From the IMG/VR virus record IMGVR_UViG_2548876861_000008: a stretch of DNA of 32,052 bases; one strand, written 5' to 3'. Below, piece by piece: positions 1 through 31,041 of this stretch. The number at the start of each line of letters is the position of its first letter. The first letter of the stretch is position 1. This stretch comes from a virus (lineage: Duplodnaviria > Heunggongvirae > Uroviricota > Caudoviricetes). The translations under genes were made by a program, and so were the position numbers. Below the pieces are notes generated by a model. The model was not told the origin of the DNA. It saw only the letters and a program-made list of their open reading frames with translations, and searched no databases.

Positions 1-1011
1 TTATAACGTCACTCCGCCTTTTAGTGGATTCAGAGCGACGGCATTTTGCAGATAGTCAGGCGCAAGGTGCGCATAGGCCATCGTCTGCTGAATGCTCGCA
101 TGTCCCAGAATCTGTTGCAGTGCGATTATATTGCCCCCATTCATCATGAAATGGCTTGCGAATGTATGCCGCAGGATGTGGGTTGCCTGATTGGGTGGTA
201 TATCAGGTTTCACTCTGCGTAAAATCCCGCAAAATTTCTCATAATCAACTTTGAATAATTTGGCGCTGGCCTCCTCTTTAACTTTTTTCTCCAGTTCCTC
301 AGAAATCGGCACGGTTCGCTTTTTACCGTTTTTGGTTTTCAGGAAGGTAACCCTGCAATTTGTAATCTGTGCTGGTTTTAGCGTGGCAACTTCCGTCCAT
401 CTTCCTCCAGTGCTCAGACATAAAAGCGCGACAAGTAAGTCATCACCAGCCAAAACATTTAACAGTTTTTCGATTTCTGCTTTTTCCAGGAACGTCATTT
501 CAGGGTTGGCCTCCGCCAGTGGCGGCAGTCCGTGAATTGGGTGTTGCCCGGAAAATTCATCCAATTGAATTAATTTTGTGAACATGCCGGATAATCGGTA
601 CATGTCACGGTTTATCGTTGCGGCACTGATACCATCACGTAGTCGCATGGAACGATAATCCATCAAAGCCCTTTTGCTCATCCTGCTCACTGGTATATCA
701 CCTATGCCGCTGATGGTTTTGAGTAGATGATTAAACTCTTTTGTTCCATGCTCGTGGTTTTGCCCGTGATATTTCCACCAGATGTCCAGCAACTCACTCA
801 AAGTCCGGCGGTCTGCTCGCTGGCCTCCCCATTCTTTCTGACTGGCATTGGCGATTGTGTATCGCTCAAATGCTAGTGCTTCAGCTTTTCTTTCGAATTT
901 CCTGCGGATGCGTTTTCCGTCGCGACCGCGAGGTCTAATGTCCACTTCATAGCGACCATCATCGAGCTTCTTAATTGCCATAAGAAAGCCCTCCGGCGCT
1001 GTATTCACCAT
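1..1011 (-). CDS. int: P2-family tyrosine integrase; window begins at its stop codon
   Basis: 336-aa ORF; C-terminal catalytic region (HILRHTFASH ... MAYAHL) typical of tyrosine recombinases; sits at prophage end next to the C repressor as in P2. Confidence 0.9.
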   Translation of the reverse strand: MVNTAPEGFLMAIKKLDDGRYEVDIRPRGRDGKRIRRKFERKAEALAFERYTIANASQKEWGGQRADRRTLSELLDIWWKYHGQNHEHGTKEFNHLLKTISGIGDIPVSRMSKRALMDYRSMRLRDGISAATINRDMYRLSGMFTKLIQLDEFSGQHPIHGLPPLAEANPEMTFLEKAEIEKLLNVLAGDDLLVALLCLSTGGRWTEVATLKPAQITNCRVTFLKTKNGKKRTVPISEELEKKVKEEASAKLFKVDYEKFCGILRRVKPDIPPNQATHILRHTFASHFMMNGGNIIALQQILGHASIQQTMAYAHLAPDYLQNAVALNPLKGGVTL

Positions 1012-1050
1012 CTTGGTAGCAAATGGTGAAAATGTAATCTTTATATAGAG

Positions 1051-1344
1051 TTAGCCAATCCTTTTCGCGGAGTGGTTGGACTCTGTTGACTCTGGCCCAA
1101 TGTGCGCGAGAGCCGGTGCGATTTGTCCTGCGTCCGGCGCGGTTTTATCTGTCATAAGCCATAGAGCATATTTTTGGAATGTGGGATGCATAGTGATTTT
1201 TAGCAAAGCTGTGCCACCGGGTTCAAAGTTTCCTCCTTCATATTTTTTAAGTGTGCTTAGCGGTAACTCTATGATTTCACAGAATTTTGATTGGCTTAGC
1301 CCTTCAGCCTCACGCAAGGCCTTAATCTTTTCGCTTAATTTCAT
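1051..1344 (-). CDS. C: P2 C-type immunity repressor (HTH)
   Basis: 97-aa ORF with N-terminal HTH-like segment (LSQSKFCEIIELPLSTLKKYE) and C-terminal QIAPALAH motif recalled from P2 C; divergent from cox. Confidence 0.8.
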   Translation of the reverse strand: MKLSEKIKALREAEGLSQSKFCEIIELPLSTLKKYEGGNFEPGGTALLKITMHPTFQKYALWLMTDKTAPDAGQIAPALAHIGPESTESNHSAKRIG

Positions 1345-1385
1345 TTGACATGGTGCCTATATAGGGACTAAATTCCCTCAAAACT

Positions 1386-1403
1386 GGAACCTATATAGGT
1401 TCC
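1386..1403. promoter_or_regulatory. Perfect 18-bp palindrome (ggaacctatataggttcc) in the C/cox intergenic switch region; candidate operator. Its 10-mer core cctatatagg also occurs at 1356..1365
   Basis: Read directly from sequence; location between divergent repressor and cox genes; TTGACA hexamer at 1345..1350. Confidence 0.4.
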
Positions 1404-1465
1404 ATTGATTTGAGAATAAACCAGCGTCTAAACGGTTTTGAGTGGTTTAGAAAGGGCTGGATCCT

Positions 1466-1753
1466 ATGAGGGTACCATATATGGACGCTGAAAATTATGT
1501 GATTCAGTATCCGCTTGATGCGGTTCATGTGGATAAATTTGCTGATTTATTAGGGAAGCCAAAGACAGCCGTCAGTGAAATGGTGAAGGCAAATAAATTA
1601 CCAATTATTGAATTGCGTGATCCTTGCAAACCGAAGGCTCGTGCCGGTGAAAAATGGGTTTTCATTCCTGAGTTTAATCGCGCTGTACGTGAGGCGTTTT
1701 ATAACCGACCGGTTGAACAGCGTGATGCATGGCTTTTGTGGATGGGGTTGTGA
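1466..1753 (+). CDS. cox: Cox-like excisionase / transcriptional switch protein
   Basis: 95-aa ORF ending RDAWLLWMGL, resembling the recalled P2 Cox C-terminus; first gene of rightward early operon. Confidence 0.75.
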   Translation: MRVPYMDAENYVIQYPLDAVHVDKFADLLGKPKTAVSEMVKANKLPIIELRDPCKPKARAGEKWVFIPEFNRAVREAFYNRPVEQRDAWLLWMGL

Positions 1754-1755
1754 TT

Positions 1756-1926
1756 ATGAATGAGCCGCGTTGTATTGCTCAGTTATTGCGTAACGAAAGC
1801 CCCAGGGCGATTGACTTCACCATCACCCACGGGAAGGGACGCAAGGGAATCATTATCCGCACCAAAAAACAGAGTCCGTTAAAAAAGGCTCTGACCTTTC
1901 TGAAAAGCCGGAGGGGCTGGAAATGA
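1756..1926 (+). CDS. small early hypothetical protein (P2 orf78 position)
   Basis: ATG at 1756 overlaps cox stop (tgATTATGa); stop overlaps start of next gene; position conserved in P2 early operon. Confidence 0.45.
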   Translation: MNEPRCIAQLLRNESPRAIDFTITHGKGRKGIIIRTKKQSPLKKALTFLKSRRGWK

Positions 1927-2423
1927 CAGTGATGACGCTCAATCTCGTTGAAAAACAGCCAGCAGCTATGCGCCGGATAATTGGCAAGCATCTTGCCGTC
2001 CCTCGCTGGCAGGATACATGTGATTATTATAATCAGATGATGGAACGCGAACGGCTAACGGTTTGCTTCCATGCGCAGTTAAAACAGCGTCACGCAACGA
2101 TGCGTTTTGAAGAAATGAACGACGTCGAACGTGAACGGCTGGTTTGTGCAATTGATGAATTGCGTGGGGCATTCTCAAAACGCCGTCAGGTTGGCGCAAG
2201 TGAGTATGCATATATTAGTTTTTTAACAGTCAGTCAGCGTCGTACTTTATTTATGCATGCCGGATTGACTGAAAAAGAATTCAACCAGCCATACTGGCGA
2301 ATTAATGAAGAATCATGTTACTGGCGTGATGCTTTATTCCGTGCATTACGTGAATTATTCAGCCTGTTTGAGTATGCACCGACAATTCTGACGTCGGTAA
2401 AACCAGAGCAATATCTGCATTAA
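1923..2423 (+). CDS. B: replication protein B (helicase-loader-like)
   Basis: 166-aa ORF, same length and operon position as P2 gpB. Confidence 0.7.
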   Translation: MTVMTLNLVEKQPAAMRRIIGKHLAVPRWQDTCDYYNQMMERERLTVCFHAQLKQRHATMRFEEMNDVERERLVCAIDELRGAFSKRRQVGASEYAYISFLTVSQRRTLFMHAGLTEKEFNQPYWRINEESCYWRDALFRALRELFSLFEYAPTILTSVKPEQYLH

Positions 2424-2486
2424 GTAATTAACCAGAGTTTTTAACGCACTTAATCGTGCGGGGCTTCTTTTTGCCTGGAGAAAGTC

Positions 2487-2711
2487 ATGCATACAGTTTC
2501 TGAAAATCAGTGCGGTAAATACGCATTACTGCTGCAACAGGCCAGAACCGAAGCACAGGCCGACGCTGCGACGCGCTTTTCTTCTCATCTTGACGCCATG
2601 ATTCGCCACATCACAAAGGCGGAGTTATCCCGCGTGGAGATAGTCGAGCTGCTCAGTCAGGAGTCGGAAAAATTTCACAATATCGGATTGTCTCGTGGGG
2701 AGGTGCTTTGA
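2487..2711 (+). CDS. early hypothetical protein (P2 orf80 position)
   Basis: 74-aa ORF in early operon, stop overlaps next start. Confidence 0.45.
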
Positions 2712-3013
2712 TGTCCTGTTCTCATTCAGTTGTATTACTGAATAACGCCTTAAAAATCGCCGTTATGAAAAATGGCGATTTATCTCTTATTCAACTTGGT
2801 CTTGATAAAGAAAAACGCGAAATAACTGAGTCTGTTATCGCGATTTATCAGAACGAATTAAATCTCCTGTCTGATGTGGTCAATTTACTTGTTAAACGCG
2901 CTGTATTTCACAAGAAAATCTCCTCCGTGGATGAACTGACAAAATTAACGACAGAAATTGCCAGCTATTGCGCTGATGAATTTAAAAAACTTAACGACAA
3001 AAGGAGCTGGTAA
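2708..3013 (+). CDS. early hypothetical protein (P2 orf81 position)
   Basis: 101-aa ORF, translationally coupled to neighbours. Confidence 0.45.
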
Positions 3014-3237
3014 TGCCGGACAACGTAGATTTTATTCAGGAACAACAGGCTGAATTACTGGAGCGCCAGATTAACGCGGCAAGGGTAAAACATTACGGTG
3101 CTTCTGCGCTGGTTTGCGAAGAGTGTGACGCGCCAATACCTGCTGCACGTCGTGCGGCTTATCCGTCAGCCACGCGTTGTGTTTCCTGTCAGTCAGTCTT
3201 TGAAGCAAAAAACAAACATTACCGGAGAACGGCATGA
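3013..3237 (+). CDS. TraR/DksA-family C4 zinc-finger protein (P2 orf82 position)
   Basis: 74-aa ORF with CxxC...CxxC (CEECDAPIP...RCVSCQ) arrangement. Confidence 0.6.
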   Translation: MPDNVDFIQEQQAELLERQINAARVKHYGASALVCEECDAPIPAARRAAYPSATRCVSCQSVFEAKNKHYRRTA

Positions 3238-3509
3238 GTATTCGTATTGAAATTGGCGAACATTATGTCGTTACCAGTGACAGCTTTCAGTTTATTCTCC
3301 ACGAGAAAAAGAGAGCTGAAAGCGGTAAAAACGCCGGTCAGGAATGGCTGTCGGTGGTTGGTTATTACCCGAAATTAAGCCAGCTCGTTTCCGGCCTGAT
3401 GCATCACGATATTCTGACCGGAAGCGCAAAGTCTTTTGCTGATTTAAACGCGCAGGTTGAGCAACTCAGCAAGCGTTGTTCAGAGGCTTTTGGCTCATAT
3501 GGCCGTTAA
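3234..3509 (+). CDS. early hypothetical protein (P2 orf83 position)
   Basis: 91-aa ORF immediately upstream of gpA. Confidence 0.45.
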   Translation: MSIRIEIGEHYVVTSDSFQFILHEKKRAESGKNAGQEWLSVVGYYPKLSQLVSGLMHHDILTGSAKSFADLNAQVEQLSKRCSEAFGSYGR

Positions 3510-5775
3510 AGCCTCCGGGCGTTTTGTCCCTCCGTCAGCATTTGCCGCAGGCACCGGTAAGACGTTTACCGGTGCTTATGCATGGAACGCGCCACGCGAG
3601 GCCGTCGGGCGCGAAAGACCCCTTACACGTGACGAGATGCGTCAGGTGCAAGGTGTTTTATCCACGATTAACCGCCTGCCTTACTTTTTGCGCTCTCTGT
3701 TTACTTCACGCTATGACTACATCCGGCGCAATAAAAGCCCGGTGCACGGGTTTTATTTCCTCACATCCACTTTTCAGCGTCGTTTATGGCCGCGCATTGA
3801 GCGTGTGAATCAGCGCCATGAAATGAACACCGACGCGTCGTTACTGTTTCTGGCAGAGCGTGACCACTATGCGCGCCTGCCGGGAATGAATGACAAGGAG
3901 CTGAAAAAGTTTGCTGCCCGTATCTCATCGCAGCTTTTCATGATGTATGGGGAACTCAGCGATGCCTGGGTGGATGCGCATGGCGAAAAAGAATCGCTGT
4001 TTACGGATGAGGCGCAGGCTCACCTGTATGGTCATGTTGCTGGCGCTGCACGTGCTTTCAATATTTCCCCGCTCTACTGGAAAAAATACCGTAAAGGGCA
4101 GATGACCACGAGGCAGGCATATTCTGCCATTGCCCGTCTGTTTAACGATGAGTGGTGGACTCATCAGCTTAAAGGCCAGCGTATGCGCTGGCATGAGGCG
4201 TTACTGATTGCTGTCGGGGAGGTCAATAAAGACCGTTCTCCTTATGCCAGTAAACATGCCATTCGTGATGTGCGTGCACGCCGCCAGGCAAATCTGGAAT
4301 TTCTTAAATCGTGTGACCTCGAAAACAGGGAAACCGGCGAGCGCATCGACCTTATCAGTAAGGTGATGGGCAGTATTTCTAATCCTGAAATTCGCCGGAT
4401 GGAGCTGATGAACACCATCGCCGGTATTGAGCGTTACGCCGCCGCAGAGGGTGATGTGGGGATGTTTATCACGCTGACCACGCCGTCAAAGTATCACCCG
4501 ACACGTCAGGTCGGAAAAGGAGAAAGTAAAACCGTCCAGCTTAATCACGGCTGGAACGATGAGGCATTTAATCCAAAGGATGCGCAGCGTTATCTCTGCC
4601 GTATCTGGAGCCTGATGCGCACGGCATTCAAGGATAATGATTTACAGGTCTACGGTTTGCGAGTCGTCGAGCCACACCACGACGGAACGCCGCACTGGCA
4701 TATGATGCTTTTTTGTAATCCACGCCAGCGTAACCAGATTATTGAAATCATGCGTCGCTACGCGCTCAAAGAGGATGGCGACGAAAGAGGAGCTGCGCGA
4801 AACCGTTTTCAGGCAAAACACCTTAACCGGGGCGGTGCTGCGGGATATATCGCGAAATACATTTCAAAAAACATCGACGGCTATGCACTGGATGGTCAGC
4901 TCGATAACGATACCGGCAGGCCGCTGAAAGACACTGCCGCGGCTGTTACCGCATGGGCGTCAACGTGGCGCATTCCGCAATTTAAAACTGTTGGCCTGCC
5001 GACAATGGGGGCTTACCGTGAACTACGCAAATTACCTCGCGGCGTCAGCATTGCTGATGAGTTTGACGAACGCGTCGAGGCTGCACGCGCTGCCGCAGAC
5101 AGTGGCGATTTTGCGCTGTATATCAGCGCGCAGGGTGGGGCAAATGTCCCGCGCGATTGTCAGACTGTCAGGGTCGCCCGTAGTCCGTCGGATGAAGTTA
5201 ACGAGTACGAGGAAGAAGTCGAGAGAGTGGTCGGCATTTACGCGCCGCATCTCGGCGCGCGTCATATTCATATCACCAGAACGACGGACTGGCGCATTGT
5301 TCCGAAAGTGCCGGTCGTTGAGCCTTTGACTGTAAAAAGCGGCATCGCCGCGCCTCGGAGTCCTGTCAATAACTGTGGAAAGCTCACCGGTGGTGATACT
5401 TCGTTACCGGCTCCCACACCTTCTGAGCACGCCGCAGCAGTGCTTAATCTGGTTGATGACGGTGTTATCGAATGGAATGACCCGGAGGTCGTGAGGGCGC
5501 TCAGGGGCGCATTAAAACACGGACTGAGAACACCAAATCGTCAGCAAAGAGCCGGAAGCCCGTTAAAACCGCATGAAATAGCGCCATCGGCCAGAATGAC
5601 CCGGTCGGAACGAATGCAAATTACCCGTATCCGCGTTGACCTTGCTCAGAACGGTATCAGACCGCAGCGATGGGAGCTTGAGGCGCTGGCGCGTGGCGCG
5701 ACCGTAAATTATGACGGGAAAAAATTCACGTATCCGGTCGCTAATGAGTGGTCGGTTTTTTCAGTTAAACAATAA
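3499..5775 (+). CDS. A: rolling-circle replication initiator gpA (nickase)
   Basis: Long ORF; HWHMMLF motif and AAGYIAKYISKN tyrosine region typical of the phage A / phiX174-A initiator superfamily; start at 3499 (MAVKASG) gives about 758 aa, close to recalled P2 A; upstream in-frame ATG at 3457 is also possible. Confidence 0.85.
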   Translation: MAVKASGRFVPPSAFAAGTGKTFTGAYAWNAPREAVGRERPLTRDEMRQVQGVLSTINRLPYFLRSLFTSRYDYIRRNKSPVHGFYFLTSTFQRRLWPRIERVNQRHEMNTDASLLFLAERDHYARLPGMNDKELKKFAARISSQLFMMYGELSDAWVDAHGEKESLFTDEAQAHLYGHVAGAARAFNISPLYWKKYRKGQMTTRQAYSAIARLFNDEWWTHQLKGQRMRWHEALLIAVGEVNKDRSPYASKHAIRDVRARRQANLEFLKSCDLENRETGERIDLISKVMGSISNPEIRRMELMNTIAGIERYAAAEGDVGMFITLTTPSKYHPTRQVGKGESKTVQLNHGWNDEAFNPKDAQRYLCRIWSLMRTAFKDNDLQVYGLRVVEPHHDGTPHWHMMLFCNPRQRNQIIEIMRRYALKEDGDERGAARNRFQAKHLNRGGAAGYIAKYISKNIDGYALDGQLDNDTGRPLKDTAAAVTAWASTWRIPQFKTVGLPTMGAYRELRKLPRGVSIADEFDERVEAARAAADSGDFALYISAQGGANVPRDCQTVRVARSPSDEVNEYEEEVERVVGIYAPHLGARHIHITRTTDWRIVPKVPVVEPLTVKSGIAAPRSPVNNCGKLTGGDTSLPAPTPSEHAAAVLNLVDDGVIEWNDPEVVRALRGALKHGLRTPNRQQRAGSPLKPHEIAPSARMTRSERMQITRIRVDLAQNGIRPQRWELEALARGATVNYDGKKFTYPVANEWSVFSVKQ

Positions 5776-5945
5776 TGACTACTACTGCAGTGTTGTGGGA
5801 ATGTTATAGTGTTTGTGGAATTTTTCTATGAAAAACAATGAATTAATCTGTTTTTCATATTGAGCTAATTTTTTATGGCCACAGTTGTTAAAAAGTGAGA
5901 ACATAATCTTGTTCAAAACCTGCTTCTATATACGGAGGCTTTCGC

Positions 5946-5951
5946 TATAAT
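5946..5951 (+). promoter_or_regulatory. TATAAT -10-like hexamer upstream of the methyltransferase gene; strong Shine-Dalgarno AGGAGG at 5965..5970
   Basis: Read from sequence; no convincing -35 found. Confidence 0.3.
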
Positions 5952-5976
5952 ACGCGGTCGGTTTTAGGAGGGGATA

Positions 5977-6921
5977 ATGCCAACAGTAGTTTCACTTTTT
6001 TCTGGATGCGGTGGTTCCGATGCGGGGGTTTTGAGAGCCGGCTTTGATGTGCTTATGGCCAACGATATCTTGCCGTATGCGCGCGATGTTTATATTGCCA
6101 ATCATCCAGAAACTGATTACATATTAGGCAATATTGCTGATGTAACTACTTTTCCTAAATCTGATTTGCTGGTAGGTTGTTATCCATGTCAGGGATTCAG
6201 CCAGGGTGGTGCGCGTAAAGCCGATCGAAAAATTAATACTCTTTATTTAGAGTTTGCTAGAGCTTTAAACAATATAAAGCCTAAAGCTTTTATAGTAGAA
6301 AACGTGTCTGGTATGGTTAGAAAAAATTTTGAGCATTTGTTATCTGACCAGATCAGGGTTTTTACTGAAGCAGGTTATACTGTTTCCGCAAAAGTTTTAA
6401 ATGCGGCTGAATATGGAGTAGCGCAGGAAAGAAAAAGAATATTTATCGTAGGAATCCGTAATGATTTCAAAGTTAAGTACGAGTTCCCTCAGCCAACTCA
6501 TGGGCCAGCAACTGGCGTCAACTATGTTACTATTAAAGATGCTATAGGGCATTTACCTGAATGGCCAGAAGGTGAATTTTATGATATGGGATTCCATTGG
6601 TATTATATGTCTCGCAATCGTCGCCAGGATTGGGATCAAATTTCAAAGACAATAGTTGCTAATGCAAGGCATATGCCGTTGCATCCTGTCAGTCCTCCGA
6701 TGGAGAAAGTAAGAACTGATGAATGGAGATTTGTTGAGGATCGGAGAGCTCGCAGATTCAGTTTTCGAGAGGCAGCACTATTACAAGGGTTTGAGGATCT
6801 AGTGTTTCCAGAAACAAATGCTGCAAGTCTTGGCATGAAATACACGGTGGTTGGTAATGCAGTGCCTCCGCCGCTTTTTGAAGCTGTAACGAAGGCATTG
6901 CCAATAGAATTATGGGATTGA
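5977..6921 (+). CDS. DNA (cytosine-5)-methyltransferase (Dcm-like C5-MTase)
   Basis: 314 aa; motif I FSGCGG, motif IV PCQGFS, motif VI ENV (FIVENVSGM), QERKR, C-terminal GNAVPPP motif X. Confidence 0.85.
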   Translation: MPTVVSLFSGCGGSDAGVLRAGFDVLMANDILPYARDVYIANHPETDYILGNIADVTTFPKSDLLVGCYPCQGFSQGGARKADRKINTLYLEFARALNNIKPKAFIVENVSGMVRKNFEHLLSDQIRVFTEAGYTVSAKVLNAAEYGVAQERKRIFIVGIRNDFKVKYEFPQPTHGPATGVNYVTIKDAIGHLPEWPEGEFYDMGFHWYYMSRNRRQDWDQISKTIVANARHMPLHPVSPPMEKVRTDEWRFVEDRRARRFSFREAALLQGFEDLVFPETNAASLGMKYTVVGNAVPPPLFEAVTKALPIELWD

Positions 6922-6928
6922 TAAGCTA

Positions 6929-7924
6929 TTAAGGCTCTGGATTTAATGTATAAAGCTCTTCCTCAAATTCGCGAAACCAATCAGAGGTAGTTATCGCTTC
7001 CCATTGGTTTGCCTTATCAAGTAGATATATGATTCTCAACCTATCTAATAATAATACCCCAGCGGTTGCGTGTGTGCTTACCCATTCGCCATTTGCTTCC
7101 CGATAGAAAACAGGCGTGAACATTGTTGATGGATGCTGGAACGCAATTTGGAAATAGGTGGTCAGTTTTAACACGTTAGCCTCTAATGTTTTGCTTGGCC
7201 ACCCTGTTTCTTGTGCACCACATTGACCAAGAATTCCATAGTTGCTAGTTTGACCATCAGGAAATTCCACTGTAGCAATTAGGTCAAACCCGGCATCACC
7301 AGATGTGGGAGCTCTATTTATTTCCCTTGTGTTTAAACTACAAACTCCAAGATCTTTTCCTAAAGTTTGTAGAGCTGTCCGAAGATTTGTTCCATAATAA
7401 TTTTGCCTATCATCGGAGTTAGCATCAAAAATTCTTACGGTGCCATGTGCAGGTAAGAGAGAAATCATTGCTACTTTACATACTCTGGCAAAGCTCTTTG
7501 CCCAACGTTGTGCTGCTCCTTTAATCGACTTAAAGGATCTAAGTCTAGAGCAGCAAAGAAGAAAAACATATATTCGTTGTTGTTGGTTTAGATTTTCTTT
7601 AATAATTATCTCATCACCTGAAATTATAAATGGATATATTTTGCCAAGAGCACTTTCTCTATATTCGAGTTGTGTCCAAACATCTTCGAGTTGCTCTTCA
7701 AAACGATCATTTCTCTCAGCGTCTCCATTAATTTCTTCTTCAGAATTACATTCTTCATCAATTTCTTCAACGCTTGTTATGCCGAATTTTCTTACTGAAT
7801 CTAAATCATTTTTATGTAGTGAGTTACGTCCGGTATAATTAATTACCGTGAGTAACTCGGCTAAATCTGCAAACAAATGAGGAGAGTTGGGATGCATAAC
7901 TCCTACTTCAAAAGTCATCATCAC
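6929..7924 (-). CDS. hypothetical protein, second gene of cargo operon; function unknown
   Basis: 331-aa ORF on minus strand, 17-bp overlap with upstream gene; AT-rich codon usage unlike the phage backbone; no motif I can assign. Confidence 0.6.
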   Translation of the reverse strand: MMMTFEVGVMHPNSPHLFADLAELLTVINYTGRNSLHKNDLDSVRKFGITSVEEIDEECNSEEEINGDAERNDRFEEQLEDVWTQLEYRESALGKIYPFIISGDEIIIKENLNQQQRIYVFLLCCSRLRSFKSIKGAAQRWAKSFARVCKVAMISLLPAHGTVRIFDANSDDRQNYYGTNLRTALQTLGKDLGVCSLNTREINRAPTSGDAGFDLIATVEFPDGQTSNYGILGQCGAQETGWPSKTLEANVLKLTTYFQIAFQHPSTMFTPVFYREANGEWVSTHATAGVLLLDRLRIIYLLDKANQWEAITTSDWFREFEEELYTLNPEP

Positions 7925-9068
7925 CTCTGCTATTTTTCTCTGCTATTTCAGAACCTATAAGCTTAATATGTTTATTGATTCTTCGTGCTACTTCATGGGC
8001 CTGTCTATCATACTCTACCGTGGCAACCATGCCTGCTGCATCTATCAAAGCTGCTTCAACTTGATAAAGTAACTGGAGAAAGTCCTTAGTAATATCAGAT
8101 GTCAATTGATAGGCAACTGCGAGTGGAGCCCCCATTCGGAATTGCTCCAATGCCTTAGGGCTACTTACAACAGCAGCTAGTTCTCTTAAATTACGTGATT
8201 CTCCTACACGAGTTTTTTTATCCTCGCCTTTTTTATATAACCATTCAGTTAGTTCTTTTATTTCTTTGTTCTTTAAACTCTTAGAATTGATGATAGGATG
8301 ACTTGGTATTGTGTCTCCATCGTCTTCGATTGAAACTCCGACAAACTGGCCTAACCGCTCATCAGCAAGTGCTGTTGATAATACTGAAAATTTAATCGTT
8401 TCTTCATCTAGCTTTTCAATACCATAAAAATCATTTTTTTTAATGATTTCATACACCGCTAAAGCGTCTAGGTTACGCTTGATATGATCCCTACGACTGC
8501 CAATAGCTCTGGCAACCTCATAGTAGCGTAGCATTGGATCCAGATTTGCATTGGTATAATCAAAAAGCTGTTTAATATATCGAGCTTTTGATAAGGGTTC
8601 CCATTGTTTGACACCAGTAATATGTCTGAAACCAAGGTACGGAAGAATCTCTTCTCTTGTTTGGCGCTCAATGACAGGAACACGATCGACCGTATGTTTT
8701 GCATTTGATGCAATTTCTCGTAGTCGAGCACTTGGATTTTCACATAGTGTCGGATCGCGTAATAATTTGACCGCGGATAGGCGACGGTTTCCTTCAACTA
8801 CAATGTACTTCCCCGGCGCTCCACTATCAGGAATGACAATCAATGGTTCTCCAGGGAAAAAACCATTTTCCGCAATAGCACTCATTAGGTCTTCGATAGA
8901 TGTTGAGGTTGCTATGTAGTTAATCATTCCCAATTGGTCACGAGACACGCCTTCAGGAAGTCTTGGGTTTTCTGTGTCAAGTTCCAAATCATCTAGCGGA
9001 ACATAAAGTATTTCTGAATCAGCAATCATCTGGATCTCCGTTGAACATGTCCACGAGAAGGAGCACAA
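7908..9068 (-). CDS. ParB/Srx-fold (ParB N-terminal-like) domain protein, first gene of cargo operon
   Basis: 386-aa ORF; N-terminal region KYIVVEGNRRLSAVKLL resembles the ParB GxxRxxA box; long alpha-helical-looking C-terminal region. Confidence 0.6.
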   Translation of the reverse strand: MCSFSWTCSTEIQMIADSEILYVPLDDLELDTENPRLPEGVSRDQLGMINYIATSTSIEDLMSAIAENGFFPGEPLIVIPDSGAPGKYIVVEGNRRLSAVKLLRDPTLCENPSARLREIASNAKHTVDRVPVIERQTREEILPYLGFRHITGVKQWEPLSKARYIKQLFDYTNANLDPMLRYYEVARAIGSRRDHIKRNLDALAVYEIIKKNDFYGIEKLDEETIKFSVLSTALADERLGQFVGVSIEDDGDTIPSHPIINSKSLKNKEIKELTEWLYKKGEDKKTRVGESRNLRELAAVVSSPKALEQFRMGAPLAVAYQLTSDITKDFLQLLYQVEAALIDAAGMVATVEYDRQAHEVARRINKHIKLIGSEIAEKNSRGDDDF

Positions 9069-9255
9069 AGTTATTTCATAACATGCAATATACTCATTCT
9101 GTAGCCATAAATGAATTATTCATGATGTAAGATTCGCGTTGATGTGCGTGAATTCGCAAGTAATTATACAGCAAGGTTTGATTGGGTATCGTCAGCACCA
9201 GTGCGGTTCCAACGTACTCATGCAACTGCATTAAAACCGCCCCATGAAGCGGGCG

Positions 9256-9274
9256 GGCGAGGCGGGGAAAGCAC
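9256..9274. other. cos cohesive-end site (19-nt ggcgaggcggggaaagcac)
   Basis: Exact match to the 19-nt cohesive end I recall for P2; lies just downstream of portal gene Q as in P2. Confidence 0.6.
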
Positions 9275-9415
9275 TGCGCGCTGGCGGTGGTGCTGATTTT
9301 ATTTTTTCAGCGTCTGAGCGCGTCGTGATGGCGTTTAGATTGTTAGCCGGGGCGTTGGTGTGTCTGCGGGCTGTTTTGTGCGGTGGTGAGCGTGTGAGAG
9401 CGTGATGGCGGGTTG

Positions 9416-9438
9416 TAAAAAAGCCGCCCGCAGGCGGC
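9416..9438 (-). terminator. Rho-independent terminator after Q (minus strand)
   Basis: GC stem gccgcc/ggcggc (9423..9438) with a run of A on the plus strand (T-run on minus) at 9416..9422, immediately 3' of Q stop. Confidence 0.5.
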
Positions 9439-9443
9439 GATGT

Positions 9444-10478
9444 TCAGCCGTTGTCAGTGTCCAGTGAGTAGTTTTTAAAGCGGATGACCTCCTGACCGAG
9501 CCAGCCGTTTATCTCGCGGATCCTGTCCTGTAACGGGATAAGCTCATTGCGGACAAAGACCTTTGCCACTTTCTCAATATCGCCCAGCGACCCGACGTTT
9601 TCCGGCTTGCCACCCATCAACTGAAAGGGGATGCGGTGCGCGTCAAGCAGGTCAGCGGCGCTGGCTTTTTTGATATTAAAAAAATCGTCCTTCGTTGCCA
9701 CTTCACTGAGCGGGATAATTTTAATACCGTCGGCTTTTCCCTGTGGGGCGTAGAGAAACAGGTTTTTAAAGTTGTTGCGGCCTTTCGACTTCACCATGTT
9801 TTCGCGAAGCATTTCGATATCGTTGCGGTCCTGCACGGCATCGGTGACGTACATGATGTATCCGGCATGAGCGCCGTTTTCGTAATACTTGCGGCGGAAC
9901 AGCGTGGCCGACTCATTCAGCCAGGCAGAGTTAAGGGCGCTGAGATATTCCGGCAGGCCGTACAGCTCCTGATTAATATCCGGCTCCAGCAGGTGAAACA
10001 CGGAGCCGGGTGCGAAGGCTGTCGGCTCGTTGAAGGACGGCACCCACCAGTAAACATCCTCCTCCACGCCACGACGGGTATATTTGGCCGGTGAGGTTTC
10101 CAGTCTGATTACCTTACCGGTGGTGCTGTAACGCTTTTCCAGAAACGCATTACCGAACACCAGAAAATCCAGCACAAAGCGGCTGAAATCCTGCTGGGAA
10201 AGCCACGGATGCGGGATAAATGTCGAGGCCAGAATATTACGTTTGACGTAAATCGGTGAGCTGTGATGCACGGCAGCACGCAGGCTTTTTGCCAGACCGG
10301 TAAAGCTGACCGGTGGCTCATACCATCTGCCGTTACTGATGCACTCGACGTAATCCAGAATGTCACGGCGGTCGAGTACCGGCACCGGCTCGCCAAAGGT
10401 GAATGCCTCCATTTTCGGGGCGCTGGCAGTCATTGTTTTCACCGCTGGCTGCGGTGTTTTCCCTTTTTTCTTACTCAT
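9444..10478 (-). CDS. Q: portal protein
   Basis: 344 aa, same length and position as P2 gpQ; stop/start coupled with P. Confidence 0.9.
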   Translation of the reverse strand: MSKKKGKTPQPAVKTMTASAPKMEAFTFGEPVPVLDRRDILDYVECISNGRWYEPPVSFTGLAKSLRAAVHHSSPIYVKRNILASTFIPHPWLSQQDFSRFVLDFLVFGNAFLEKRYSTTGKVIRLETSPAKYTRRGVEEDVYWWVPSFNEPTAFAPGSVFHLLEPDINQELYGLPEYLSALNSAWLNESATLFRRKYYENGAHAGYIMYVTDAVQDRNDIEMLRENMVKSKGRNNFKNLFLYAPQGKADGIKIIPLSEVATKDDFFNIKKASAADLLDAHRIPFQLMGGKPENVGSLGDIEKVAKVFVRNELIPLQDRIREINGWLGQEVIRFKNYSLDTDNG

Positions 10479-12280
10479 CAGTAAAACTCCAGAATGGTGG
10501 ATGTCAGCGGGGTGCTGATACCGGCGGTGAGTGGCTCATTTAACAGGGCGTGCATGGTCGCCCAGGCGAGGTCGGCGTGGCTGGCTTCCTCGCTGCGGCT
10601 GGCCTCATAGGTGGCACTGCGTCCGCTGCTGGTCATGGTCTTGCGGATAGCCATAAACGAGCTGGTGATGTCGGTGGCGCTGACGTCATATTCCAGACAG
10701 CCACGGCGGATAACGTCTTTTGCCTTGAGCACCATTGCGGTTTTCATTTCCGGCGTGTAGCGGATATCACGCGCGGCGGGATAGAACGAGCGCACGAGCT
10801 GGAACACGCCGACACCGAGGCCGGTGGCATCAATACCGATGTATTCGACGTTATATTTTTCGGTGAGTTTGCGGATGGATTCCGCCTGGGTGGCAAAGTC
10901 CATACCTTTCCACTGGTGACGCTCAAGTATTCTGAATTTGCCACCGGCCACCACCGGCGGTGCCAGTACCACGCATCCGGCGCTGTCGCCACGGTGTGAC
11001 GGGTCGTAACCAATCCATACCGGTCGGGAGCCGAACGGATTTGCGGCAAACGGCGCATAGTCTTCCCATTCTTCCAGCGTGTCGACCATGCAGCGTTGCA
11101 GCTCCTCGAACGGGAATACCGATGCCTTGTCGTCAACAAATTCACACATGAACAGGTTTTTAAAATCGTCGGCGCTGTTTTCGCGTTTAAGCTGCTCAAT
11201 GTCGAACAATGTGCAGCCACCTTTCAGGGCGTCCTCAATGGTGACAATCTGCCGCCACTGGCCGTCCGCACAGAGAAGACCTCCGGCAAGGGCGTTATGA
11301 CTGACGTCGATTTCCACGCGTTCGGCGGCGCTGGCGCGTCCCCGGTTGAACAGTTCACCTGACCAGAACGGGTAGGCGTCGTGCGCCAGCGTGGACGGGG
11401 TGGAGAAATAGGTCGAGCGCAGGTGACTCTGTGAGGCCATACCTGATGCCACCTTACGCAGTACCTGAAAATTCGGGATCCAGAAAATCTCGTCGACGTA
11501 CAGGTCGCCGTTATGGCTCTGTGCGGTGTTGGAGTTGGTGCCGAGAAAAATCAGTTTTGCGCCGTTATTGCCCAGGACAATCGGGTCACCGGTCAGGTCA
11601 ACGTCAACCAGCCGGGCAAAGGCGATGATGTATTCACGGAACACATACGCCTGCGTTTTACTGGCCGACAGAAAAATCTGGTTATGACCGGTTTTCAGGG
11701 CGCGCAGCAGCGCCTCGCGGGAAAAATAAAACGTCGCGCCAATCTGGCGGGATTTCAGGATATCGCGGATGCGGTGCTCAAGCCCGGCGCGATACCAGTG
11801 CAACTGATATTCGAAAGACTGCTCAAAGAAAATCTGCTCCAGCTTTTCGATGGCCTCGTCACTGAAAAAATTCTTTTTCGGTTTGCGACGCCCGCCTTTG
11901 TTGCGGTTAGCGACGTTCGGATTAAGGTCTGCCTCGTTGCCGGTCTGACTGTAACGGTTGACCCGTGCCAGTCGTTCAATCTGGCGTCCGAGCAGGTCAA
12001 TTTCCTTGAAGTCACCGCCGGTTTTCTGCGGTTTGATGATGAGCTGGGTCAGCCGCGCTTCCAGACTCATTTCGACACGGCTGATGGGGGCAACGCTGTC
12101 CCAGCCGTCGCGCTGTTTCCAGCTCTGCACCGTCGGGCGTTTCATCTGCAACATGGCGGCAATCTGCGGCACGGAAAACCCCTGCCAGTACAGCAGCGCC
12201 GCCTGACGACGCGGGTCGTGTAAAAGAGTGGTGTCTGTGGTGATGGTCATGAATACCTCGCCGTGATGAATACACGGCAA
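10478..12280 (-). CDS. P: terminase large (ATPase) subunit
   Basis: 600-aa ORF divergent from capsid operon; length and position as P2 gpP. Confidence 0.9.
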   Translation of the reverse strand: MPCIHHGEVFMTITTDTTLLHDPRRQAALLYWQGFSVPQIAAMLQMKRPTVQSWKQRDGWDSVAPISRVEMSLEARLTQLIIKPQKTGGDFKEIDLLGRQIERLARVNRYSQTGNEADLNPNVANRNKGGRRKPKKNFFSDEAIEKLEQIFFEQSFEYQLHWYRAGLEHRIRDILKSRQIGATFYFSREALLRALKTGHNQIFLSASKTQAYVFREYIIAFARLVDVDLTGDPIVLGNNGAKLIFLGTNSNTAQSHNGDLYVDEIFWIPNFQVLRKVASGMASQSHLRSTYFSTPSTLAHDAYPFWSGELFNRGRASAAERVEIDVSHNALAGGLLCADGQWRQIVTIEDALKGGCTLFDIEQLKRENSADDFKNLFMCEFVDDKASVFPFEELQRCMVDTLEEWEDYAPFAANPFGSRPVWIGYDPSHRGDSAGCVVLAPPVVAGGKFRILERHQWKGMDFATQAESIRKLTEKYNVEYIGIDATGLGVGVFQLVRSFYPAARDIRYTPEMKTAMVLKAKDVIRRGCLEYDVSATDITSSFMAIRKTMTSSGRSATYEASRSEEASHADLAWATMHALLNEPLTAGISTPLTSTILEFY

Positions 12281-12423
12281 GGCTACTGAGTCGCGCCCCG
12301 CGATTCGCTAAGGTGCTGTTGTGCCAGTGATAAGCCATCCGGGACTGATGGCGGAGGATGCGCATCGTCGGGAAACTGATGCCGACATGTGACTCCTCTA
12401 ATCACTATTCAGGACTCCTGACA

Positions 12424-21187: not shown

Positions 21188-22383
21188 CAGTGAAATACTA
21201 CGCCATTCTGACTAATCAGGGCGCAGCACGGCTGGCTAACGCGACGATGCTCGGCAGTAAGCTGAATCTGACGCAAATGGCCGTTGGTGATGCGAATGGT
21301 GTCTTGCCGACACCAGACCCGGCACAGACAAAACTGATTAACCAGAAACGCATCGCGCCGCTGAATCTTCTGAGTGTTGACCCGAACAACCAGAGCCAGA
21401 TTATTGCGGAGCAAATCATCCCTGAGAACGAGGGCGGATTCTGGATCCGTGAGATTGGGCTTTATGATGATGAAGGCGTACTCATTGCGGTGGCGAACTG
21501 CCCGGAAACGTACAAACCGCAGTTGCAGGAAGGCAGTGGTCGTACCCAGACTATCCGCATGATTCTGGTTGTCACGAATACCGAAGCTATCACGCTGAAA
21601 ATCGACCCGTCGGTGGTACTGGCGACCCGTAAATACGTGGATGATGAAGTCCTGGAATTAAAGCTGTATGTGGATGACCAGATGAGAAACCACATTGCCG
21701 CACAGGATCCTCATACCCAGTATGCGCAGAAACATAATCCGACATTTACCGGAGAACCAAAAGCGCCGACGCCTGCCGCAGGAAATAACACCACGCGGAT
21801 TGCGACCACTGAGTTTGTTCAGGCCGCTATTACCGCTCTGATTAACGGTGCGCCAGCCACGCTGGACACACTGAAAGAAATTGCCGCAGCCATTAACAAT
21901 GACCCGAAATTCAGTACCACCATTAACAATGCGCTGTCAGGTAAGCAGCCACTGGATGAGACGCTGACTCATTTGAGTGGAAAGGATGTTGCCGGTCTTC
22001 TCGCATACCTTGGTTTGGGAGAAGCGGCAAAACGGAATGTAGGAACAGGGGAAAATCAGATACCGGACATGACCTCTTTTGCCAGTGGTGATGGATGGAT
22101 GAAATTACCCAACGGGAAAATCCTGCAATATGGTCGTGGTGCGATTACGCCGACATTATCGACGCAAACAATGAGAATTACATTCAGCATCCCTTTTCCT
22201 AAAAAAGTGGACTGCGCCATGCTTACCCATTCTGGTGATGGTGGTGCGCCTTTAGGCGCTGGACGGGGATTCGTGATGACTGCAGAAGGTCCAACACTAA
22301 CCGGTTTTAATTCCGCTTACAGAACTGCATCAACCAGCTCCACAGTATCGATGAATTACAGTTGGTGGGCTGTTGGTGAGTAA
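21184..22383 (+). CDS. H: tail fibre protein H (currently expressed variable C-terminus)
   Basis: 399 aa; N-terminus has the conserved P2-H-like AVANCPETYKPQLQEGSGR region; 3' part lies inside the invertible segment. Confidence 0.85.
   Translation: MTVKYYAILTNQGAARLANATMLGSKLNLTQMAVGDANGVLPTPDPAQTKLINQKRIAPLNLLSVDPNNQSQIIAEQIIPENEGGFWIREIGLYDDEGVLIAVANCPETYKPQLQEGSGRTQTIRMILVVTNTEAITLKIDPSVVLATRKYVDDEVLELKLYVDDQMRNHIAAQDPHTQYAQKHNPTFTGEPKAPTPAAGNNTTRIATTEFVQAAITALINGAPATLDTLKEIAAAINNDPKFSTTINNALSGKQPLDETLTHLSGKDVAGLLAYLGLGEAAKRNVGTGENQIPDMTSFASGDGWMKLPNGKILQYGRGAITPTLSTQTMRITFSIPFPKKVDCAMLTHSGDGGAPLGAGRGFVMTAEGPTLTGFNSAYRTASTSSTVSMNYSWWAVGE
22010..22043. repeat. Left 34-bp inverted repeat / crossover site of the invertible tail-fibre segment (ttggtttgggagaagcggcaaaacggaatgtagg)
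   Basis: Exact reverse-complement copy at 23569..23602, verified base by base. Confidence 0.75.
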
Positions 22384-22394
22384 TTTTATTCAGG

Positions 22395-22847
22395 GTGATT
22401 TATATGAACGAATATGTTTATAGCGCAAGGCATAATGCTTTTTTCCCTGTGGATATGATTGATAAATATAAATCAGAGGGATGGGATTTATCAGACGCAA
22501 AGGAAGTAAATCAAAATATTATCAGTGAGTTTATGGCTGAACCGCCACAAGGAAAAATCCGTATTGCCGGAGATGATGGGCTGCCTGCGTGGGCAGATAT
22601 TCCTCCACCCACGCATGAAGAGCTTATTGAAATTACTGAATCAGAAAGACAGCTACTAATTAACCAGGCTAACGAATACATGAACAGCAAGCAATGGCCT
22701 GGCAAAGCAGCTATTGGTCGTCTGAAAGGTGAGGAACTGGCGCAATATAATTTGTGGCTGGATTACCTGGACGCACTGGAACTGGTGGGTACCTCCAGTG
22801 CTCCAGATATTGAATGGCCTACACCTCCGGTAACTCAGGCCAGCTAA
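22395..22847 (+). CDS. G: tail fibre assembly protein (active-orientation copy)
   Basis: 150-aa ORF directly after H; C-terminus (DIEWPTPP) parallels the convergent minus-strand copy. Confidence 0.75.
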   Translation: MIYMNEYVYSARHNAFFPVDMIDKYKSEGWDLSDAKEVNQNIISEFMAEPPQGKIRIAGDDGLPAWADIPPPTHEELIEITESERQLLINQANEYMNSKQWPGKAAIGRLKGEELAQYNLWLDYLDALELVGTSSAPDIEWPTPPVTQAS

Positions 22848-23244
22848 TCTCAGGAGCCGTCGAAGTGTCGACGGCTTTTACTTCTTTTTTGTAGTCCATC
22901 CAGGCAGATAGTTTTTCTTTATCTGTACTGCTAATATCACCAAGCATTAATTCCACTCGCCAGTCAGCTGTGACATTATCGGCATGAGCAAGTAACTGCA
23001 TTCGCTGATTTTCCGCACGTGCGACATAATCAATCGCCGGGGATTTTAGTACCGGTAAACCATTTTCATCTGACGTGATTAATTTACCCCCTTCCTGCTG
23101 TCCGGCAATTAATTCATTGTATAAGTCTGTACTTATCTCAACAATGTCAGCAGGCATGTCGCTGTTTATACCATCAAAGAAAAAACCATTAGTCGATTTT
23201 GAGAAATAAATCATAGATATACCTATACACCGATTGCTACCCAA
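22819..23244 (-). CDS. alternative tail fibre assembly protein (inverted-orientation copy)
   Basis: 141-aa minus-strand ORF convergent with G and overlapping it by about 29 bp; C-terminus (EISWPELPEV) similar to G. Confidence 0.7.
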   Translation of the reverse strand: MGSNRCIGISMIYFSKSTNGFFFDGINSDMPADIVEISTDLYNELIAGQQEGGKLITSDENGLPVLKSPAIDYVARAENQRMQLLAHADNVTADWRVELMLGDISSTDKEKLSAWMDYKKEVKAVDTSTAPEISWPELPEV

Positions 23245-23602
23245 AAACAGGATCTTTCATATTTGACAATTTCTCCCTGAGATATACCGCCAACAATTAT
23301 ATAGAACTGTGATTTGCTGATATCAGAACAGTTCGCTATGCCCATTGCAGATATACCAGCCACCGACGTTGTATGTGGCACAGCCAACAGCGCAAGTGAA
23401 CGATTTGGGAATGTTACCGGGTAAGTCACCGTATAGTTTGATGCTCCACTGACAATACCCCACTGAATAATCAGACCTGAAGGAAGTTTTTGAAAACCCG
23501 TTGATGAAAGTGAACTGGCAAACGCCGCCATATCCGGAATTTGGTTTTGCCCGTTACCTACATTCCGTTTTGCCGCTTCTCCCAAACCAACGTTTATGAA
23601 AA
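23223..23602 (-). CDS. alternative tail-fibre C-terminal cassette (promoterless; would fuse to H constant region after inversion)
   Basis: Minus-strand ORF begins with the same LGLGEAAKRNVG peptide encoded by the inverted repeat and ends in a different receptor-binding-like tail. Confidence 0.6.
23569..23602. repeat. Right 34-bp inverted repeat / crossover site
   Basis: Reverse complement of 22010..22043. Confidence 0.75.
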
Positions 23603-23657
23603 TGCAGAGATAACGGGCAAGTGGCATCATCTCCGGTTTTTATTCAGGGGGATGCTC

Positions 23658-24251
23658 ATGCTTATTGGCTATGTACGCGTGTCGACAAATGACCAGAACA
23701 CGGAATTGCAGCGTAACGCGCTGAAGTGCGCAGGATGTGAGCTGATTTTTGAGGACAAAATCAGCGGCACGAAGTCCGACAGGCCGGGACTGAAAAAACT
23801 GCTCAGGACATTATCGGAGGGGGATACACTGGTAGTCTGGAAGCTGGACCGGCTGGGGCGTAGTATGCGGCATCTGGTCATTCTGGTTGAGGAACTGCGC
23901 GAACGCGGCGTTAATTTTCGCAGCCTGACAGATGCTATTGATACCAGCACGCCGATGGGGCGTTTTTTCTTTCATGTGATGGGTGCCCTGGCTGAAATGG
24001 AACGAGAGCTCATTGTCGAGCGGACTCGGGCCGGGCTGGAAGCGGCCAGAGCCAAAGGTCGTATTGGTGGCAGACGTCCTAAACTCACCGCGAGTGAGTG
24101 GGAGCAGGCCGGGCGTTTGCTGGCTGCAGGGGAGTCACGTCAACGCGTGGCACTGATTTTTGATATTGGTCTGTCCACGCTCTATAAAAAATTTCCCTCA
24201 TCAGCGACAAAGAATAAATTGTGTCATCCCTTAGCCAACCGGGACAAATAG
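23658..24251 (+). CDS. Gin/Pin/Cin/Hin-family serine DNA invertase
   Basis: MLIGYVRVSTNDQN... N-terminus with catalytic serine, C-terminal HTH; immediately adjacent to right inverted repeat as gin is to the Mu G segment. Confidence 0.85.
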   Translation: MLIGYVRVSTNDQNTELQRNALKCAGCELIFEDKISGTKSDRPGLKKLLRTLSEGDTLVVWKLDRLGRSMRHLVILVEELRERGVNFRSLTDAIDTSTPMGRFFFHVMGALAEMERELIVERTRAGLEAARAKGRIGGRRPKLTASEWEQAGRLLAAGESRQRVALIFDIGLSTLYKKFPSSATKNKLCHPLANRDK

Positions 24252-30613: not shown

Positions 30614-30694
30614 TGCTTTTATTTTATCTGTTTGTTTTATAAGGATAAATTAACTAAAATGGCACCATCAACAAAACCGGAAGAGGTGCTCGCG

Positions 30695-30913
30695 ATGTTT
30701 CATTGTCCTTTATGCCAGCATGCCGCACATGCGCGTACAAGCCGCTATATCACTGACACGACAAAAGAGCGTTATCATCAGTGCCAGAACGTGAATTGCA
30801 GTGCCACGTTCATCACTTATGAGTCGGTACAGCGATACATCGTGAAGCCGGGAGAAGTCCACGCCGTAAGGCCGCACCCGTTGCCGTCAGGGCAGCAAAT
30901 TATGTGGATGTGA
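30695..30913 (+). CDS. ogr: Ogr zinc-finger late-gene transcriptional activator
   Basis: 72 aa from ATG 30695 (MFHCPLCQHAAHARTSRYI...CQNVNC); Cys4 zinc finger; matches recalled P2 Ogr. Confidence 0.85.
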   Translation: MFHCPLCQHAAHARTSRYITDTTKERYHQCQNVNCSATFITYESVQRYIVKPGEVHAVRPHPLPSGQQIMWM

Positions 30914-30923
30914 TCACAAAAAT

Positions 30924-30950
30924 AGCCCCTCAGTTGAGGGGCTTTATTTA
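30924..30950 (+). terminator. Rho-independent terminator after ogr
   Basis: Stem agcccctc / gaggggct with 4-nt loop followed by ttattta. Confidence 0.5.
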
Positions 30951-31041
30951 TGGTCGATGTGGACGCTATGTGGACAGTGGTTGATATAAATCCATTTATA
31001 TCATCAGGTTAGGTGCTTTTTTGTGACACCATCCCTGTCTT

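Follow-up and report, generated by a model that had tools for sequence, protein, structure and literature searches.

A probable hotspot cargo between gpA and cos of a P2-like prophage and its most likely role as a restriction-modification-like system

What does an abrupt fall in G+C content between two conserved phage genes tell about where the DNA came from, when it arrived and what it does? This question is raised by a P2-like (Peduovirus) prophage contained in the virus record IMGVR_UViG_2548876861_000008 (Caudoviricetes), in which the DNA between the replication endonuclease gene gpA and the cohesive end site cos is markedly A+T-rich. The whole stretch analysed, of 32,052 nucleotides, is referred to here as the window. 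An earlier note, made from the sequence alone, had described positions 5776–9100 as an A+T-rich island that is recently acquired by virtue of its composition, and had pointed to a nearby palindrome as a possible operator. The analysis supports with considerable confidence the reading that the interval ~5756–9219 is an exchangeable cargo of the gpA–cos locus (hotspot #1), formed by a conserved three-gene module that is most likely a restriction-modification (R-M)-like anti-phage system. The compositional break was correctly read, and is an ordinary, already documented feature of this locus.

An exchangeable cargo between gpA and cos

The edges of the cargo were placed by comparing positions 3400–12400 with P2-like phages that carry other cargo, namely STYP1, PhiR44_1, pro147 and 12474III. 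The backbone is 97–98% identical to these phages; the identity ends at 5755–5763 and restarts at 9218–9221, and the DNA between 5756 and 9219 is unrelated in them despite the near-identical flanks. In anchored alignments the left junction falls after ...GAGTGG(T/C)CGG, at ~5755/5756 and within the final seven codons of gpA, so that the cargo begins (~5756) 20 nt ahead of the gpA stop codon (5773–5775). On the right, homology restarts at ATGCAACTGCATTAAAACC (~9220), 36 nt before the cohesive end, whose sequence is the one annotated as cosR in P2 (NC_001895); the linear genome record of phage HQ103 terminates at window position 9255. The boundaries that had been proposed, i.e., the gpA stop codon and the G+C-rich region close to cos, hold to within ~20 nt (left) and ~120 nt (right), the right edge being at ~9219 and not at 9100. 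The end of gpA is specific to the cargo. In phages with other cargo, GATTCTCAAC stands in place of the T-run found there in the window, and the cargo T-run converts a backbone hairpin into a terminator-like structure.

The break itself is large. The sliding-window G+C profile falls from 0.55–0.57 at 4751–5750 to 0.35–0.43 over 5751–9000, and returns to 0.50–0.56 from 9001 onwards. Positions 5776–9100 have 39.5% G+C, against 53.5% in gpA (3457–5775), 55.6% in Q plus P and 54.9% over 9218–32052. Non-overlapping 250-bp segments of the island (0.336–0.448, n=13) and of the backbone (0.500–0.660, n=82) show zero overlap (Mann-Whitney U=0, P=4e-9). The 3454-bp stretch of minimal G+C in the whole window starts at 5721, and a likelihood fit with two change points places the low-G+C block at 5707–9181. 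Codon usage behaves in the same way: G+C at third codon positions (GC3) is 0.305, 0.261 and 0.283 in the three cargo genes and 0.546–0.704 in gpA, Q, P, O and N, while the codon adaptation index (CAI), with backbone codon usage as the reference, is 0.42–0.46 for the cargo and 0.63–0.80 for the backbone. Both calculations bear out the break that had been noticed by eye, and the two A+T-rich strings quoted as examples are present in the sequence as given. Further, weaker patches of low G+C are found at 1–3250, 22000–23500 and 30500–31250.

The A+T richness of the non-essential genes of P2 has long been recognised, and the slot in question, which holds orf91, tin and old in P2, is a known site of variation. 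Rousset et al. (2022; PMC9122126) described the gpA–cos locus, for which they gave 1,650 gene arrangements in Escherichia coli, as a hotspot of defence systems, and four of the new defence systems reported by Vassallo et al. (2022; PMC9519451) are located at this same position, also treated as a defence hotspot. The interval studied here lies between gpA and cos/Q, has variable content between near-identical flanks and is itself a catalogued arrangement: its products WP_001143636, WP_000142509 and WP_000559725 figure as "DNA_methylase + hypothetical + ParBc" in Table S5A of Rousset et al., with at least 98 occurrences. The cargo DNA was found in 48 of 5,426 complete E. coli genomes, always on the chromosome and at 95–100% identity (≥99% in 46), and it is also carried by Yersinia phage HQ103. 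Other phages fill the slot with different genes, such as Fic/VbhT in STYP1, Dcm plus ParaMORC3 in PhiR44_1, and reverse transcriptases/retron in pro147. The G+C content of the cargo is 35.1% in P2, 36.0% in STYP1, 36.9% in PhiR44_1, 38.0% and 35.2% in pro147, 39.6% in 12474III, 40.7% in Wphi and 39.5–39.6% in two more prophages, with backbones of ~55%. Since all measured cargos have 35–41% G+C, a compositional break is the norm for the locus. Position, anchors, A+T-rich cargo and swapping among 97–98% identical backbones are shared with the gpA–cos locus of P2, and no structural difference was noticed. The content does differ, since the cargo is not orf91/tin/old and has no counterpart of the orf91 (DUF3850) gene that adjoins gpA in P2, Wphi, L-413C and 12474III. 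Exchange of cargo between such otherwise nearly identical phages would proceed through recombination in the conserved flanks, that is, the 3′ end of gpA and the cos block. In pro147 (positions 4842–7095) a second A+T-rich cargo, with 35% G+C, a reverse transcriptase and a retron Ec48-type effector, is situated between cos and Q; cargo can therefore stand on either side of cos.

The three-gene module and its proposed function

The cargo consists of a ParB-like gene, an overlapping gene for a 329-amino-acid (aa) protein, and a convergent gene for a C5 cytosine DNA methyltransferase. The methyltransferase is a complete enzyme by domain, PF00145 spanning residues 3–308 of 314. Its closest solved relative is M.HaeIII, which recognises GGCC, and the alignment (residues 4–308) covers the catalytic and target-recognition regions, including the MSRNR...LHP segment; by this resemblance its target is probably GGCC-like. 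GGCC sites are not avoided in the island (7 observed, 5.3 expected) or in the whole window (124 observed, 147 expected), a count that is uninformative in this respect. The 329-aa protein gave zero matches in Pfam, NCBIfam and PADLOC, and only fold comparison was informative; the fold makes it a probable nuclease effector, and its nuclease motif is atypical. The ParB-like protein, whose ATG start codon at 9029 is preceded 7 nt upstream by GGAG, has an invariant GNRRLxA arginine patch and matches the PADLOC model PD-Lambda-5_A (E = 6.6e-29, profile positions 7–277 of 440). A search of this protein for a HEPN domain found none, nor any conserved Rx4-6H motif. Its C-terminus (7908–7928) carries a conserved acidic run followed by phenylalanine (...DDDxF), F373 being invariant in one alignment of the family (A3) and nearly so in another (A2); this tail recalls the C-terminal tip of SSB, which recruits partner proteins. 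Only three open reading frames (ORFs) of the island have homologues. There is no ParA-type ATPase among them, and no ORF for a controller (C) protein, or C-box arrangement, was found in 9030–9219 or in the rest of the island. Searches of the whole window against Rfam (gathering thresholds) and with ARAGORN gave zero matches and no tRNA or tmRNA, respectively, so the intergenic parts are not explained by any known RNA gene.

The same convergent trio occurs in at least 13 loci, phage and non-phage, of Beta- and Gammaproteobacteria, and in most of them 0–50 nt separate the 329-aa gene from that of the methyltransferase. Phage carriers include vB_EcoM-12474III (gp04–gp06; same slot, 66% nucleotide identity), Wphi (orf98–orf96–mth) and three further P2-like prophages (L030, L032 and L033), Cronobacter among them. 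Another eight loci are chromosomal or belong to metagenome-assembled genomes (MAGs), from Edwardsiella, Halomonas, Melaminivora, Methylophilaceae, Methylobacter, Methyloversatilis, Nitrosomonadales and Gallionella. The Wphi and 12474III cassettes share slot and three-gene layout with the window and their methyltransferases are 76% identical to that of the window, but they are diverged alleles, with ParB-like proteins of 34% (Wphi) and 61% (12474III) and 329-aa proteins of 25% and 58% identity, respectively; in both, but not in the window, gpA is separated from the methyltransferase gene by genes of orf91 type. A literature search found no functional characterisation of either cassette. In phage L-413C (207–1199) a 3′-truncated ParB-like ORF (62% identity over residues 9–303) stands directly beside orf91, the nuclease-like and methyltransferase genes being missing; the cassette seems to have decayed there to this remnant.

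The nearest system with experimental support is PD-lambda-5 of E. coli ECOR7, described as "ParB/HEPN, methyltransferase". It comprises two genes, is validated and broadly protective, its cloning required a host lacking mrr, and it was read by its authors as a compacted prophage system combining R-M and abortive infection (Abi) (Vassallo et al., 2022; PMC9519451). The likeness lies in a homologous ParB-like subunit, a DNA methyltransferase partner, the prophage location and a logic of R-M plus effector. The differences are as follows. PD-lambda-5B is a D12-class N6-adenine methyltransferase (PF02086, top HHpred match), whereas the enzyme of the window is a C5 methyltransferase (PF00145), and the PD-Lambda-5_B model is absent from the best 25 of its 63 PADLOC family matches. 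PD-lambda-5A has ~500 aa and, towards its C-terminus, a weak match to HEPN, while the ParB-like protein of the window has 373 aa and no HEPN. Finally, the cassette of the window has three genes, including a separate restriction-endonuclease-like protein, instead of two. Thus a ParB-like subunit A is present, but the HEPN region and the D12-class subunit B are not, and with two of the three testable features lacking the cassette is not filed as PD-lambda-5. It probably works in a comparable way, with methylation marking self and the ParB-like protein coupling the detection of unmodified DNA to an effector.

Two other families are also close. The cassette resembles a Type II R-M system in having a full-length M.HaeIII-like methyltransferase beside a gene with a restriction-endonuclease-like fold, in convergent order; it departs from one in the extra, tightly coupled ParB/KorB-like gene, in the atypical nuclease motif, in the occurrence of the pair sometimes without a methyltransferase nearby, and in having no controller protein. 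With the cytidine triphosphate (CTP) switches ParB, KorB and VirB it shares an N-terminal ParB/Srx fold and a GNRRLxA arginine patch followed by a helix-turn-helix (HTH) domain; it differs from them in that no ParA partner and no parS-like site were identified, the partners being a nuclease-fold protein and a methyltransferase. The Menshen system (ParB-DUF262 domain) was considered and rejected, as it gave no PADLOC matches and has another architecture.

In the R-M-like system that is most likely encoded here, the methyltransferase would mark the DNA of the lysogen, probably at GGCC-like sites. Transcribed towards it is a two-gene operon of a putative nucleoside triphosphate (NTP)-switch/DNA-binding protein of ParB/KorB type and the 329-aa protein. 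The division of labour between these two would be that the ParB-like protein senses, or loads on, unmodified incoming DNA, and directs or activates its nuclease partner. A bolder version can be offered only tentatively, and we think it rather doubtful: the cassette may represent a distinct R-M class in which a ParB/KorB-type nucleotide switch, perhaps using CTP, and not the nuclease discriminates the target, by loading as a clamp at unmethylated GGCC-like sites, sliding, and recruiting or activating the nuclease, while the methyltransferase blocks loading on self DNA. If true, such a class would account for a methyltransferase kept at 67–77% identity next to effectors that go down to 25–34% under phage counter-defence.

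Several points weigh against an R-M-like system. Across cassettes the methyltransferase (67–77% identity) is far more conserved than its partners (25–65%; ParB-like 34–65%, 329-aa protein 25–58%), an unusual pattern for R-M partners that evolve together. In L008 and L018, both of them loci with long flanks, the ParB-like/329-aa pair is present but a C5 methyltransferase is absent within 7 kb; the methyltransferase adjoins the pair in every informative locus but these two, for which the comparison covered the locus and its flanks. These loci suggest that the pair is not obligatorily linked to the methyltransferase and may not be lethal alone. In addition, a literature search found no characterised system combining ParB, a C5 methyltransferase and a nuclease, and no experiment on this cassette. 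As to their surroundings, the pair of L008 (5839–8008) has a specificity gene of a Type I R-M system and a gene for an AAA ATPase as neighbours, and that of L018 (5851–7963) lies among housekeeping genes.

The contrast in conservation and the two loci without a nearby methyltransferase also favour an alternative, namely that the interval holds two independent cargos: an orphan or anti-restriction methyltransferase that protects P2 DNA from restriction by the host, and a separate ParB-like/nuclease-like module for defence or abortive infection that does not depend on methylation. In addition, the methyltransferase gene is convergent to the pair and not co-transcribed with it, and the P2-like PhiR44_1 joins an unrelated Dcm to a different effector in the same layout. 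Nonetheless, the same trio recurs in at least 13 loci of two proteobacterial classes, mostly with 0–50 nt between genes, and the validated relative PD-lambda-5 also requires its methyltransferase partner and a host lacking mrr. Two unconnected cargos are accordingly judged unlikely, and the R-M-like system is the reading retained. The features of the region are collected in Table 1.

Table 1. Coordinates of the features at and around the gpA–cos cargo, in window positions
Feature	Position	Strand	Basis
gpA replication endonuclease, backbone; final ~7 codons cargo-specific	3457..5775	+	ORF; RefSeq "replication endonuclease" in carriers; 97% identity to other P2-like phages up to 5755–5763; junction alignment
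Hairpin plus T-run at the end of gpA, terminator-like	5734..5763	+	Terminator scan; stem from backbone, T-run from cargo
Variable A+T-rich cargo of the gpA–cos hotspot, 39.5% G+C	5756..9219		Breakpoints against four phages; composition; occurrence in E. coli genomes and HQ103
C5 cytosine DNA methyltransferase, 314 aa, M.HaeIII-like	5977..6921	+	PF00145 5.5e-65; TIGR00675; PDB 1dct 1.4e-48; RefSeq WP_001143636
329-aa protein, winged-helix domain plus PD-(D/E)xK restriction-endonuclease-like fold	6929..7918	-	Fold comparison
ParB/KorB-like protein, 373 aa: ParB/Srx N-terminal domain, HTH DNA-binding domain, helical C-terminus, acidic tail with terminal Phe	7908..9029	-	Domain and fold comparison
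13-bp palindrome ATGAAT-T-ATTCAT (atgaattattcat)	9111..9123		In sequence; inside cargo, 82–94 nt upstream of the ParB-like start codon
Three 10-bp-phased ATGCA-like repeats, TTGCG-aattc-ACGCA-catca-ACGCG (TTGCG-N5-ACGCA-N5-ACGCG)	9133..9159	-	Common to upstream regions of related cassettes
TGTATAAT, extended -10-like element just upstream of the phased repeats, one of three candidate promoters of the ParB-like operon	9163..9170	-	Read from sequence; no above-threshold site here in the consensus scan
Conserved cos-proximal backbone block, hairpin at 9237–9256	9220..9255		Homology to all P2-like phages restarts here
cos cohesive end GGCGAGGCGGGGAAAGCAC	9256..9274	+	HQ103 record end at 9255; match to P2 cosR
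Portal protein gpQ, backbone	9444..10478	-	ORF; RefSeq "phage portal protein"

Elsewhere in the window, a Hin/Gin-type serine invertase ORF (ending at 24251, plus strand) adjoins ORFs for tail-fibre C-terminal or assembly proteins at 22395–22847 (+), 22819–23244 (-) and 23223–23630 (-). The whole region, 22395–24251, overlaps the second low-G+C patch (0.41–0.46), and the invertase with its oppositely oriented tail-fibre ORFs looks like an invertible switch of host range. An integrase ORF occupies positions 1–1011 (minus strand), and at the other end an ogr-like zinc-finger gene (30632–30913) is followed by a host gene for a cation-diffusion facilitator (fieF-like, from 31108), so that the window corresponds almost exactly to one prophage, which ends on the right near 31.0 kb.

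Age of the island

The composition had been taken as a mark of recent acquisition. An independent indication was obtained from the divergence among eight carriers, made up of six E. coli chromosomes, HQ103 and the window itself. Pairs of carriers differ on average by 0.078% within the island, against 2.18% and 2.28% in the flanks next to it (2.3 kb of gpA and 2.9 kb of cos–Q–P, respectively); each carrier differs from the window at 1–3 of 3,464 island bases and at 53–83 bases in each flank. The island allele coalesces ~28-fold more recently than the backbones around it, and this contrast (0.078% against ~2.2%) indicates a recent spread of the allele across diverged backbones. The single-nucleotide polymorphisms (SNPs) closest to the junctions lie at 5700 on the left and at 9250–9373 on the right; the limits of the exchanged tracts are only tens of bases away from the junctions, as expected from recombination in conserved anchors. 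One carrier, in E. coli AMSCJX04 (1048–3000), has gpA annotated as four fragments and two upstream genes marked as frameshifted, as in a decaying prophage or through assembly errors, and its island differs from that of the window by one base.

The allele is thus recent, as the earlier note had it, but G+C content is not the proof. Cassette homologues lie 3–15 points under the surrounding G+C in hosts of 41–67% G+C, and diverged alleles in the P2 slot (Wphi and 12474III, with ParB-like and nuclease-like proteins of 25–61% identity) still have 38–39% G+C. Because every cargo of the slot has 35–41% G+C and diverged alleles of the cassette are equally A+T-rich, composition is unusable as a clock; low G+C is a general property of the cargo of this slot and of this gene family, and not a date stamp. 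The uniform range of the slot, the equally A+T-rich alleles of Wphi and 12474III and the A+T shift of the homologues in each host examined might also be taken to mean that the island is old in the phage lineage and acquired its low G+C through long residence under A+T-biased selection or mutation (for instance as accessory DNA silenced by H-NS). Such an old residence is improbable given that divergence of the island among carriers is ~28-fold under that of the flanks, with SNP density climbing within 56 nt of the left junction and 30–150 nt of the right one.

The upstream region of the ParB-like gene

The palindrome reported in the earlier note is present, upstream of the minus-strand operon; as the variable DNA extends over ~5756–9219, it falls within the cargo and not beyond its edge. 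Its proposed role as an operator fared less well. In favour of that role, it is situated 82–94 nt ahead of the start codon, coincides in part with a weak -35 candidate (TTCATT, 17 nt, TATATT) and includes a hexamer, AATAAT, that resembles a -10. The downstream gene encodes a KorB-type HTH protein, and KorB binds a palindromic operator. Other cassettes show different palindromes at similar distances (-90 in 12474III and -96 in L018). However, equally good palindromes (arms of at least 6 bp, loops of 0–4 nt) occur six times in the island, against 4.9 ± 2.1 in dinucleotide-preserving shuffles, and the 190-nt intergenic region would contain one or more by chance with a probability of 0.22. The palindrome was absent upstream of related cassettes with 86%, 72%, 70%, 61% and 34% identity in the ParB-like protein; no controller gene is present; and the palindrome of 12474III and Wphi aligns with phased ATGCA repeats that also adjoin unrelated cargo. 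That the palindrome at 9111–9123 is an operator is consequently very unlikely. A scan for sigma-70 consensus sites found no convincing promoter for either transcription unit (8 sites, 9.3 expected).

The phased repeats are of another kind. Two or three of them stand 59–69 nt from the conserved cos block in STYP1, PhiR44_1, pro147 and P2, whatever the cargo (in the comparison loci at ~4326 in L003, ~6649 in L004, ~5880 in L005, ~4708 in L006 (pro147), ~96 in L023 and 3952–3979 in L034), and those of P2 occupy roughly -35 to -60 relative to the old–tin transcript starts mapped in that phage. An operator proper to the cassette was rejected for them, since the same motif is found at the same distance from cos beside unrelated cargo, which makes the repeats a phage-level element of the cos-proximal region. 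They match 5–6 of the 8 positions of the Cox-box consensus, TTAAA(G/C)NC(A/C), which has a phasing of 10–11 nt (PMC3936717), and may represent a site associated with a promoter, an array of Cox-box type or a piece of the packaging signal.

HQ103 is reported to be a non-integrating, H-NS-controlled carrier-state phage of Yersinia pestis (PMC10321612), and the papers on it do not discuss the cargo genes; H-NS would naturally be expected to target the A+T-rich island there. This identical island in a non-integrated element, the ParB N-terminal domain followed by an HTH as in ParB, KorB and Spo0J, and the case of VirB, a ParB-like CTP switch that counteracts H-NS (PMC10770331), might suggest that the ParB-like gene and the palindrome form a partition or maintenance module, or a VirB-like anti-silencer of the island, that aids episomal persistence, but this is highly improbable: the island has no ParA-type ATPase, the genes that accompany it, on chromosomes as well as in phages, encode a nuclease-fold protein and a DNA methyltransferase, the ParB-like protein matches a validated defence family, the palindrome that might serve as a parS-like site is neither conserved nor enriched, and the partition system of the hotspot reported by Rousset et al. 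is a different cargo, StbA/Plasmid_stab_B (PMC9122126).

Variation in the gpA–cos slot is textbook knowledge, its nature as a defence hotspot has been published, and this cargo was already catalogued and is present in a sequenced phage; the compositional observation in itself adds little. What the comparison provides is base-level breakpoints (~5756 and ~9219) and a proof, independent of composition, of a recent sweep of the allele across P2 backbones; low G+C at the gpA–cos locus should not serve as a clock. The open value resides in the cargo, a widespread module in which a ParB/KorB-like protein forms the link between the validated PD-lambda-5 family and classical Type II R-M, and for which the cultivable phage HQ103 and the many lysogens carrying the cassette offer easy test material.

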